Positions 25,301 through 28,300 of a DNA stretch of 52,444 bases are shown here, piece after piece. Location: the IMG/VR virus record IMGVR_UViG_2897375277_000007; one strand, 5' to 3'. The position numbers were made by a program. The first letter of the stretch is position 1; the number at the start of each line of letters is the position of its first letter. This stretch comes from a virus (taxonomy: Duplodnaviria; Heunggongvirae; Uroviricota; Caudoviricetes).

Positions 25301-28300
25301 ATCTGAAGTTGCTTTTACGTTAATTTGATGCAGATCAATTAATACGATACCTGCGTCATAATTGATTATTTGACGTGGTTTGATGGCGTACACGCACGTT
25401 GTGACATGTAGATGATAATTATTATTTTGTGGGTCCTTTCCGGCGATCCGACAGGTTACGGGGCGGCGACCTCGCGGGTTTTCGCTATTTATGAAAATTT
25501 TCCGGGATCCATGTCCGGTTTCTCTGCAAGTTAACTATATGAAAAATATAAAAACAGGCTGTCCGTGAACCGGACATGTGCAAAAAACGGACATGTAAAC
25601 CGGACATGACCGGTTTTGTGCTGATTGTGAGGTAAGAGTTTTTGCGAGGTGAGGAGTGGCTACGCAGACTGAAGTTGCCAGGCATTTGAGTCTGACCGAT
25701 CGCCAGCTTCGCAGATTGCAGAAATTACCGGGTGCCCCGGTCTCGAATAAGCGAGGGCAACTGGATCTGGATGCCTGGCGCGATTTTTACATATCGTATC
25801 TGAGGAGAAGTAAAAACGATGTGCCTGATGGCGATAGCGAAGACGACTATGAGGAAAAATTGCTTATTGCCAGATGGGAACTGACAGCAGAACAGGCTGT
25901 TACACAGCAGTTAAAAAATGAGGTGTCAAAAGGAAAACTTATTGACACCGGGTTCTGTATTTTTGCCCTCAGTAAGCTGGCAATGGCGTTATCCAGTACG
26001 CTTGATTCCATCCCTTTATCCATGCAACGACAGTTTCCTGATTTAACACCGCGCCATCTTGACCATCTGAAAACCCTTATTGCGAAGGGGGCAAATCAGT
26101 GTGCGCGGGCGGGGGATAAATTACCGGATTTACTCGATGAATATATCAGAGCAACAACTGAATAATATGATGAGTGCTGTCACAACAGCATTACAGCCCC
26201 TGATAAGGGCATTGCCGGTGACGCCAGTTGAATGGGCTGATCAAAATTATTATCTGCCGAAAGAATCTTCATATGGTGAGGGAGAATGGAAAACGCTGCC
26301 ATTCCAGATCGCCATTATGAACTGTATGGGTAACGACCAGGTTCGCACGGTTAACCTGATTAAATCTGCCCGTGTTGGCTATACAAAGATGTTGCTGGGG
26401 GTGGTCGGGTATTTTATTGAGCATAAATCCCGAAACAGTCTGCTTTTTCAGCCCACGGATTCTGCCGCTGAAGATTTTATGAAGTCTCACGTGGAGGCGA
26501 CGATTAGGGACGTGCCATGCCTGAAAGACCTTTCCCCATGGCTGGGTCGTAAACATCGTGATAATACCCTCACGCTGAAACGCTTTTCATCGGGTGTGGG
26601 CTTCTGGTGCCTGGGCGGCGCTGCCGCCAAAAACTACCGTGAAAAATCCGTGGACGTGGTCTGCTATGACGAGCTTTCCTCGTTCGAACCGGATGTTGAA
26701 AAAGAGGGCTCGCCAACCCTGCTGGGGGATAAGCGTATTGAGGGCTCTGTATGGCCAAAATCCATTCGCGGCTCGACGCCTAAAATCAAAGGCACCTGTC
26801 AGATCGAAAAAGCGGCTAACGAGTCGGCGCATTTCATGCGTTTTTATGTGCCCTGCCCGCACTGTGGGGAGGCGCAGTATCTGAAATTTGGCGATGAGTC
26901 CACGCCTTTTGGGCTTAAATGGGAGAAGGACAGTCCCGAAAGCGTTTTCTACCTCTGTGAACATCATGGCTGCGTGATCCATCAGTCTGAACTGGACCAG
27001 AGCAACGGGCGGTGGATCTGTGAAAACATGGGCATGTGGACCCGTGACGGTCTGACGTTTTTCAGCGCTGCGGGTAATGAAATTCCGCCGCCGCGCTCCA
27101 TCACTTTCCATATCTGGACGGCGTACAGTCCGTTCACCACCTGGGTACAGATTGTCTATGACTGGCTGGATGCACTGAAAGATCCCAACGGCCTGAAAAC
27201 TTTTGTGAACACCACGCTGGGCGAGACCTGGGAAGAGGCCGTGGGCGAAAAACTCGATCACCAGGTTCTGATGGATAAGGTTGTGCATTACACGGCGGCG
27301 GTGCCTGCCCGGGTGGTTTATCTGACGGCGGGCATTGACTCGCAGCGAAACCGTTTTGAGATGTATGTCTGGGGATGGGCTCCGGGAGAGGAGGCCTTTC
27401 TGGTGGATAAAATTATCATTATGGGGCGTCCCGATGAGGAAGAGACGCTATTACGTGTAGATGCGGCGATCAACAAAAAATACCGCCATGCAGACGGAAC
27501 CGAAATGACCATTTCCCGTGTCTGCTGGGACATCGGGGGGATCGATGGCGAAATCGTTTATCAGAGGTCAAAAAAACACGGTGTTTTCCGGGTGCTGCCG
27601 GTAAAAGGCGCATCTGTCTATGGCAAGCCGGTGATCACCATGCCAAAAAACCGCAATCAGCGGGGCGTGTATCTGTGTGAAGTGGGGACGGACACCGCAA
27701 AAGAAATTCTCTATGCCCGTATGAAAGCCGATCCCACGCCTGCGGATGAAGCCACGTCGTATGCCATCCGTTTTCCTGATGATCCGGAGATTTTTTCGCA
27801 GACAGAAGCGCAGCAACTGGTGGCGGAAGAGCTTGTGGAGAAGTGGGAAAAAGGAAAGATGCGTCTGCTGTGGGATAACAAAAAGCGGCGTAACGAAGCA
27901 CTGGATTGCCTGGTGTATGCCTACGCGGCATTACGTGTGTCCGTGCAACGCTGGCAGCTTGATCTGGCTGTACTGGCAAAATCCCGGGAAGAAGAGACGA
28001 CCCGGCCAACCCTTAAAGAACTGGCAGCGAAGCTGTCCGGAGGAGTGAATGGTTACAGTCGCTGAACTGCAGGCGCTGCGTCAGGCGCGCCTTGATTTAT
28101 TAACCGGTAAACGGGTGGTGTCTGTCCAGAAAGACGGTCGCAGAATTGAATATACGGCGGCTTCTCTGGATGAGCTTAACCGGGCGATCAATGATGCGGA
28201 GTCGGTACTGGGGACAACCCGCCGTCGCCGTCGTCCGCTGGGAGTGAGGTTATGAAACGAACGCCTGTCCTGATTGATGTGAACGGCGTTCCGCTTCGGG

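Follow-up and report, generated by a model that had tools for sequence, protein, structure and literature searches.

A lambda-type cos site joined to a distinct cosB and small-terminase binding domain, with a predicted packaging specificity of its own

Packaging specificity determines which DNA a terminase puts into capsids. Here we describe the packaging module of the IMG/VR virus record IMGVR_UViG_2897375277_000007 (Caudoviricetes), a stretch of 52,444 nucleotides analysed over its whole length and referred to below as the window. The module belongs to a lambda-like E. coli prophage and consists of a cos site followed by the genes for the small and large terminase subunits. We consider it likely that this is a functional lambda-type cos whose recognition part was exchanged as a cassette, and that the cassette has, as predicted from its sequence, its own specificity. 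A preliminary description of the window had noticed the mosaic; its observation is confirmed and its interpretation is supported. The specificity swap is real and of an ordinary kind, while binding, dependence on IHF, cleavage and specificity are what we infer from the anatomy of the site and from the lambda analogy (PMC4669245, PMC9026076).

The features of the module are as follows, with base pairs (bp) counted from the first cohesive-end base (25461 = bp 1).

25117–25505, plus strand: lambda-like DNA block (BLASTN match to lambda 48155..45, 88% identity), which sets the left boundary of the swapped cassette
25431–25437, plus strand: cosQ, GGGTCCT, read in the sequence; predicted packaging-termination signal, conserved in relatives
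25461–25472, plus strand: cosN, 12-nucleotide cohesive end GGGCGGCGACCT; one occurrence in the window, identical to lambda and 21
25478–25505 (bp 18–45), plus strand: A/T-rich I2 stretch, including TATGAAAATTTTC at bp 30–42; identical to lambda
25510–25521 (bp 50–61), plus strand: R3 equivalent CATGTCCGGTTT, no mismatches; proposed principal binding site of the small terminase
25532–25544 (bp 72–84), minus strand: IHF-like I1 equivalent TTTCATATAGTTA, two mismatches to WATCAANNNNTTR
25567–25578 (bp 107–118), minus strand: R2 equivalent CATGTCCGGTTc, inverted copy with one mismatch
25584–25595 (bp 124–135), minus strand: middle copy CATGTCCGtTTT, inverted, one mismatch
25597–25608 (bp 137–148), minus strand: third conserved site, an exact inverted copy; proposed R1 role, orientation opposite to lambda R1
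25605–25616 (bp 145–156), plus strand: forward near-copy CATGaCCGGTTT, one mismatch, overlapping the third site to form a 20-bp near-palindrome
25656–26165, plus strand: small terminase gene, GTG start at bp 196, 169 amino acids; Pfam Phage_Nu1
25656–25820 (amino acids 1–55), plus strand: predicted DNA-binding domain of the small terminase, a winged helix-turn-helix with recognition helix DRQLRRLQ at amino acids 15–22
26137–28065, plus strand: large terminase gene, gpA homologue, 642 amino acids from the ATG at 26137

The left part of the site belongs to lambda. According to the preliminary description the cohesive end and its flanks match lambda, and alignment bears this out, cosN and the whole of bp 1–45 being identical. 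cosN has the conserved CG flanks of a lambda-type cos and is 100% conserved in 38 cos variants. Similarly, a cosQ lies 30 nucleotides before bp 1, within the roughly 30 nucleotides expected of such a site, and is followed by 23 nucleotides and then by TTACG, GGGCGGCGACCT and CGCGGGTTTTCGCTATTTATGAAAATTTTCCGG. Because the right end of the lambda record OR974322.1 is faulty, the cosQ comparison is based on phage 21 and on the published lambda/Sp4 alignment. Lambda cosQ has the same sequence and the same 30-nucleotide spacing to bp 1 as in the window, in agreement with that alignment, from which a single substitution relative to lambda was read between cosQ and cosN. By analogy, the termination role of cosQ would carry over from lambda (PMC4669245). 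After 25505, BLASTN similarity to lambda comes back only at 26222, within the large terminase gene, at 68%. The 92–95% matches of lambda-family phages in the phage collection likewise cover window positions 25380–25505 only and then end. Since the lambda matches end there, the break with lambda is placed at bp 45, on the boundary between the I2 stretch, of which bp 30–35 are essential in lambda (PMC4856287), and the start of lambda R3.

Beyond this break the R sites of lambda are replaced by repeats, as had been noticed. The 8-mer CGGACATG occurs at four sites in the 52,444 bases, all inside 99 bp (25510–25608): on the minus strand at 25510–25517 and on the plus strand starting at 25571, 25588 and 25601. 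The positions given earlier were right to within one base, two of the four being off by one. The bare number of 8-mers is unremarkable, four being reached by 11 of 100 shuffles. The real repeat unit is longer, namely the 12-mer CATGTCCGGTTT: allowing at most one mismatch, the whole window contains five such sites, all within the 107 bp from bp 50 to bp 156, against an estimated chance number of about 0.2.

These sites follow the plan described for complex cosB (PMC4669245), with a forward R3, an IHF-like site and an inverted R2 at positions equivalent to those in lambda and 21. The IHF-like site lies on the same strand as I1 of lambda and of 21 (AAACATTAAGTTA and AAACAAAAAGTTA, bp 74–86), and in four relatives the IHF consensus at bp 72–84 is perfect. 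The third site is found at bp 136–150 in phage PhiR12_1 and in Enterobacter and at bp 149–163 in Klebsiella, and it is the last conserved element of the cos carried by a satellite island discussed below. In the complex cosB of lambda, 21 and Monarch, R1 has the orientation of R3, while the third site of the window has that of R2. The middle copy is only 82% conserved in E. coli variants and is absent in other genera; as it has degenerated in both PhiR12_1 and the satellite island, it is probably dispensable, either as an accessory site or as a decaying one. The forward near-copy at 25605–25616 was considered as the true R1 and rejected: it is conserved among E. coli variants, and neither the satellite island nor the other genera keep it. 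In this window only, a further partial forward copy, TGTCCG, precedes R2; it gives a small hairpin TGTCCG-TGAAC-CGGACA at 25560–25576, which PhiR12_1 and most E. coli variants do not keep.

Conservation was assessed at two depths. A profile search of viral contigs kept 80 loci whose small terminases are all about 99% identical and which therefore give a within-species footprint only; within E. coli, 75 loci reduced to 38 distinct cos sequences. Among these 38 variants R3 is conserved at 100%, R2 at 99%, I1 at 98% and the third site at 97%, and the most variable parts are spacers (bp 85–106, 84%; bp 119–123, 70%). A search of genome contigs with a profile from the small-terminase alignment gave nine loci, mostly matched through the C-terminus and so of little use for the binding domain. 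The cross-genus set comprises ten loci from six genera, counted as Escherichia, Klebsiella, Salmonella, Citrobacter, Enterobacter and one metagenomic contig. All ten hold the same register, with a forward copy at bp 48–62 (49–63 in Klebsiella) and an inverted copy at bp 106–120 (107–121 in Klebsiella). The conservation scores are 0.99 for the I2 core (bp 30–42), 0.94 for the R3 core, 0.93 for the R2 core and 0.76 for I1, compared to 0.52–0.58 for the spacers.

The repeats also vary together with the helix by which the small terminase is predicted to recognise DNA. In five loci (the window, PhiR12_1, Citrobacter, S. diarizonae and Enterobacter) a helix (T/S)(D/E)RQLRRLQK is found with the site ATGTCCGGTT. 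In five loci the helices ERRLRDLQK, ERWLRDLQK, ERQLRNLQK, ERQFRNLQK and ARRVRDLQK are found with ATTTCCGGTT or ACTTCCGGTT, that is, with A[T/C]TTCCGGTT. Finally, two distant contigs combine the helix DRQVRTLVT with the site GCTTCCGGTT. Residue 20 is thus Arg where the site is ATGTCCGGTT and Asp or Asn where it is of the second type; it is central in the predicted helix 15–22, beside the position aligned with the lambda specificity residue 20. Taken together, the R3 and R2 positions shared with lambda and 21, the register kept in ten loci and the co-variation with the helix support the reading of the repeats as putative terminase recognition elements. Such paired natural variation of helix and site offers a candidate recognition code.

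The large subunit is gpA-like, as first described: it matches both Pfam domains, GpA_ATPase (E 3e-56) and GpA_nuclease (E 9e-71), and is 66% identical to lambda A over 639 residues, from Met1. The small terminase, in whose relatives an ATG stands in place of the GTG start codon, is 98.8% identical to that of phages PhiR12_1 and PhiR12_2. Against Pfam Phage_Nu1 (PF07471) it scores 67.9 bits (cut-off 30), with amino acids 49–150 aligned to profile positions 62–163 only, and its residues 73–164 are 46% identical to Nu1 86–177. Residues 1–62 gave no BLASTP alignment to Nu1, no Pfam Nu1 match and, in a search of PDB sequences with the family profile that returned noise only, no match. The claim that the N-terminus is unrelated to Nu1 therefore holds at the sequence level, and the label of a non-Nu1 small terminase was overstated, the C-terminal two-thirds being of the Nu1 family. 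PHROG 57 matches the small terminase over its full length, as it does lambda Nu1 and N15 gp1; for the N-terminus this is weak evidence because the profile may include members of the window type.

AlphaFold models of the whole protein (pLDDT 73) and of residues 1–62 (pLDDT 76) both have a strand, helices at 4–10 and 15–22, a short hairpin at about 31–36 and a helix at 38–55, the order of a winged helix-turn-helix (beta-alpha1-alpha2-wing-alpha3). Foldseek gave no significant match for either the full-length or the domain model (best E about 0.4), and the nearest structures are nearly all winged helix-turn-helix domains of the MerR type. Among these neighbours, 7lw0_A, 7lwr_A, 7lxs_A and 6hn7_B are by sequence binding domains of lambda-family small terminases, and such domains align at TM 0.57–0.67 and a root-mean-square deviation of 2.7–3.5 Å (E at least 0.4). 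The structure of the Nu1 binding domain itself is PDB 1J9I. The models are suggestive of a Nu1-family protein whose binding domain would have the same fold and a different sequence type.

The relatives show modularity of the protein: when aligned, they have N-termini of three types (lambda/21, N15 and window) on closely related C-terminal halves. Protein P0056 combines an N15-type N-terminus with a C-terminal half nearly identical to that of the window, and its locus carries GGTTGTTGTT repeats instead. Two E. coli prophages, L015 and L023, share an unusual cosQ–cosN variant (..ACACCGGGGGACGGCAGACGCGC..) about 200 nucleotides upstream of their small-terminase genes; L015 then has the window-type cassette, and L023 has the N15/Monarch-type cosB and binding domain with a window-like C-terminal half. 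The cohesive end of this variant differs considerably from that of lambda.

Comparison with the known systems places the module beside them. To our knowledge, lambda, 21 and N15 are the only packaging specificities that have been tested genetically. Lambda shares with the window cosN, bp 1–45, the spacing of R3, I1 and inverted R2, and also cosQ. Its R sites read CGTTTCCtTTCT as opposed to CATGTCCGGTTT, its R3 and inverted R2 are found at bp 53–64 and 108–119, with R3 of the window about 3 bp nearer cosN, and its small terminase starts at bp 191 as opposed to 196. Relative to lambda, the third site of the window is inverted and 14–18 bp closer, and the middle copy is additional. Both elements of lambda specificity, the R sites CGTTTCCtTTCT and the helix SIRTIQNWQE, are absent from the window. 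The R sites of 21 differ from those of lambda by three base pairs. Phage 21 has the same cosN and cosQ followed by a different cosB and small-terminase helix; its annotated R3, I1, R2 and R1 (GenBank) lie at bp 50–65, 72–86, 107–122 and 150–165, with R1 in R3 orientation, unlike the inverted third site of the window. The R sites of 21 share CATGTC with the window, while the window site differs from the 21 consensus CaTGTCGGnCCT at positions 7 and 9–11 and its helix is unrelated to the 21 helix DPRTIERWQS. Whereas the binding domain of 21 has clear homology to that of lambda, the domain of the window is a separate sequence type with a site core of TCCGGTT.

N15 is the nearer parallel. It has a third type of binding domain, not alignable with that of lambda, on a lambda-like C-terminal half and with a gpA-like large subunit. 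The preliminary description had compared the window with the swap between 21 and lambda; the mosaic packaging-specificity module stands, and the comparison has to be moved to N15 versus lambda, because the DNA-binding domains cannot be aligned, unlike the clearly homologous domains of 21 and lambda. cosN of N15 differs from lambda at two positions while that of the window is identical, and the N15/Monarch specificity elements (R3 GAGGTTGTTGTT, helix ISVQAFDKW) are absent from the window and present in L023. In the N15/Monarch group, a simple cosB with a single R3 and a gene start near bp 80–90 exists beside a complex one (Feiss et al. 2015, PMC4669245). The window type mirrors this split: its enterobacterial loci are complex, and distant metagenomic relatives have a simple cosB with tandem TCCGGTTCCGGTT at about bp 50–70 and a gene start near bp 77. 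The simple loci, all on metagenomic contigs, are:

L021, positions 300–380
L022, positions 1–70
L106, positions 1150–1200

In the mechanism we propose, nicking at the lambda-identical cosN would fall to the gpA homologue and the direction of termination to cosQ, just as in lambda. The winged helix-turn-helix of the small terminase would bind the copies of CATGTCCGGTTT, forward at R3 and inverted at R2, and bending by IHF at bp 72–84 would bring the two together. A dimer of binding domains could then hold R3 and R2 and position gpA on cosN, with one or two further inverted copies (bp 124–148) serving as accessory sites, as R1 does in lambda. Recognition of position 4 in the site would depend on helix residue 20, with Arg reading G and Asp or Asn reading T. 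Neither the helix nor the sites are those of lambda, 21 or N15, and for this reason the module is expected to confer its own packaging specificity.

Several points weigh against this reading. Binding, cleavage and packaging by the small terminase are themselves deduced. The window's own I1 departs from the IHF consensus at its two mismatched positions, and the inverted third site means that the higher-order complex need not equal that of lambda. The structural matches are non-significant and the models of moderate confidence. Furthermore, the loci form few clades, and the co-variation of helix and site may therefore reflect no more than one or two independent evolutionary changes.

The module is not new as a sequence. 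Prophages Sp4 and Sp14 of the O157:H7 strain Sakai (Asadulghani et al. 2009, Fig. S8) have the same Nu1 N-terminus (MATQTEVARHLSLTDRQLRRLQKLPGAP..) and essentially the same module, and their cos is the same as that of the window up to ..TTTTCCGGGATCCATGT, where the published alignment stops. The lambda alignment in that figure shows the same break after TTTTCCGG; the authors mark cosQ, cosN and the IHF site only, with no R sites or specificity class (Asadulghani et al. 2009). In the same work Sp4 was still packaged despite an insertion that interrupts its nu1, and in view of the identical cos sequences this was credited to the terminase of Sp14. The module of EDL933 is 96% identical. Of 5426 complete E. 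coli genomes, 1155 (21%) contain cosB together with the start of the small-terminase gene, in a median of two copies and four at most. In 50,697 phage records, the module was found in PhiR12_1 to PhiR12_5 only, phages recorded with laboratory strains as host. No paper on the PhiR12 phages turned up in a literature search, and the literature searched, outside of which two Virology papers from the Feiss laboratory fall, held no definition of the R sites and no specificity test of the module. The module is a further member of the known lambda-like packaging-specificity cassettes, common and experimentally uncharacterised. Because it is present in about one fifth of E. coli genomes, usually in at least two co-resident prophages and including O157:H7, the cassette probably governs cross-packaging among defective prophages that carry virulence genes.

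The same cosB also occurs in satellite islands. For the island EcCICFT073, two cos sites were printed in a 2019 supplement, of which cos2 reads ..TTTTCGGGATCCATGTCCGGTTTCTCTGCAAGTTAACCATATGAAAAATATAAAAACATGCTTCCATGAACCGGACATGCGCAAAAAACAGACACTAAAACCGGACAT.. (Fillol-Salom et al. 2019, PMC6739421). This cos2 is the cosB of the window, with R3, I1, R2, a degenerate middle copy and the third site, and unlike in the window no terminase gene follows it. The cosB of EcCICFT073 was called 'completely divergent' from phage cosB, and cos2 was given no helper (Fillol-Salom et al. 2018, 2019). According to the same authors, cos1 and not cos2 is needed for transfer of the island by lambda or phi80; RppA acts on cos1, whose cosB is the only one to respond to it; lambda TerS with RppA works on a site other than cos2; and deletion of cos2 raises lambda-mediated transfer (Fillol-Salom et al.). 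Plasmids with either island cos were transferred by lambda and phi80 less than plasmids with the cognate phage cos (PMC6092414). Finding the window's cosB in satellite islands suggests a function for this second cos site, which published work left unexplained.

A second case comes from strain CEA601S (NZ_CP166713.1), which carries a satellite-type island of about 10 kb with a window-type cos at L110:8929–9105. The island carries genes for an integrase, a small regulator, a DUF927 protein, SSB and PerC, as well as for one capsid and one decoration protein. The single cos on it corresponds to the window from cosQ as far as the third site (bp −30 to 147), R3 being 100% identical; past the third site, similarity falls to 22% and no small-terminase gene follows. 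The island cos thus delimits what appears to be a portable cis-acting unit, which supports a packaging-signal function for it. The arrangement of the island was found over at least 80% of a 631-bp probe in 12 genomes. Many more genomes match the island-side part of the probe only and stop near bp 45–57, so cosB cassettes appear to be exchanged in islands too. Just past the last CGGACAT of the island, at L110:9115–9130, stands AACCGGAAGTG, which is the repeat of the sister subtype (CACTTCCGGTT), the partner of Asp/Asn20 helices; the CEA601S island may carry sites for both subtypes. The sequences suggest that such islands could use helpers of the Sp4/Sp14/PhiR12 type directly.

We can only tentatively extend this to a wider proposal, which we regard as possible and somewhat short of probable: that the window-type cassette is a fourth lambda-like specificity class with at least two sub-specificities determined by residue 20, exploited directly by satellite islands without Rpp. 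If so, Arg20 with G and Asp/Asn20 with T at position 4 would set the sub-specificities. cos2 of EcCICFT073 and single cos sites of the CEA601S type would be copies of the cosB that are packaged by Sp4/Sp14/PhiR12-type helpers without an Rpp redirecting protein, and islands with two cos sites could use two helper classes.

Returning to the window, we think it unlikely that the repeats confer no separate specificity and are a drifted version of lambda/21 recognition, with cross-acceptance in one direction or the other. The CATGTC shared with the 21 consensus would fit such drift, as would the resemblance of the sister subtype CATTTCCGGTTC to lambda R3 CGTTTCCGTTCT, the packaging of lambda DNA by N15 terminase despite its differing R sites (PMC4669245) and the transfer, if reduced, of cos2 plasmids by lambda and phi80 (PMC6092414). 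However, lambda and 21 are separated by R positions 4 and 7 (bp 56 and 59; PMC4669245), where the window has a third combination, G and C; moreover, its site is shifted 3 bp towards cosN, and its recognition helix shares none of the specificity residues of lambda or of 21.

It is very improbable that the repeats are bound by another protein, for instance a host factor or a regulator of late genes, or form a transcription-related hairpin, and that the small terminase recognises something else. Two terminator-like hairpins do overlap R3 and R2, where 0.6 ± 0.8 are expected, and genes for a PerC-family regulator and a YlcI/DUF3950 protein lie just upstream. The hairpin partners, however, are not conserved, bp 98–104 being among the most variable positions and different in PhiR12_1; the genes upstream are part of the lambda-like block and are also found with other cosB types; it is the small-terminase helix, and not these genes, with which the repeats change; and the satellite island keeps the repeats without those neighbours in the same arrangement. 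A role of the repeats as terminators or as a promoter was likewise rejected, with counts near expectation and hairpin partners that are not conserved. That the cos is a relic in a decaying prophage, its repeats being chance or leftover and now without function, could draw on the insertion sequences in the prophage and on the non-significant count of the bare 8-mer. We hold this to be extremely unlikely: the 12-mers cluster far beyond chance, conservation of the sites extends over 1155 genomes and beyond the genus, the terminase genes of the window are intact and phages PhiR12_1 to PhiR12_5 carry the same module.

The recognition cassette sits in a prophage with the following neighbouring and mobile genes.

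24645–24959, plus strand: PerC-family regulator gene, upstream of cos; in the same place in EDL933
25040–25264, minus strand: YlcI/DUF3950 gene, directly upstream of cos; in the same place in EDL933
21178–22749: IS66-family transposase gene, between the late genes and the lysis genes
11931–13019 and 51186–52091: transposase genes with integrase-core domains

The PerC-family gene is homologous to the activators of the LEE island; as noted above, a PerC protein is also encoded by the satellite island. The prophage may be defective despite its intact terminase genes and cos. At the left end of the window, a tRNA-Ser(CGA) gene (892–981) adjoins a phage integrase gene (1034–2059) and probably marks the prophage attachment site. 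In the late region, four tRNA genes, for Met, Lys, Thr and Gly, are clustered at 16012–16321, and just downstream of them lies a sialate-esterase-like gene (SASA/DUF1737/DUF6645) at 16644–18548. Downstream of the tail-fibre genes, the gene at 47608–49980 encodes pentapeptide repeats together with SopA-like central and catalytic domains, and by this domain content its product looks like a secreted ubiquitin ligase of the NleL/SopA type.

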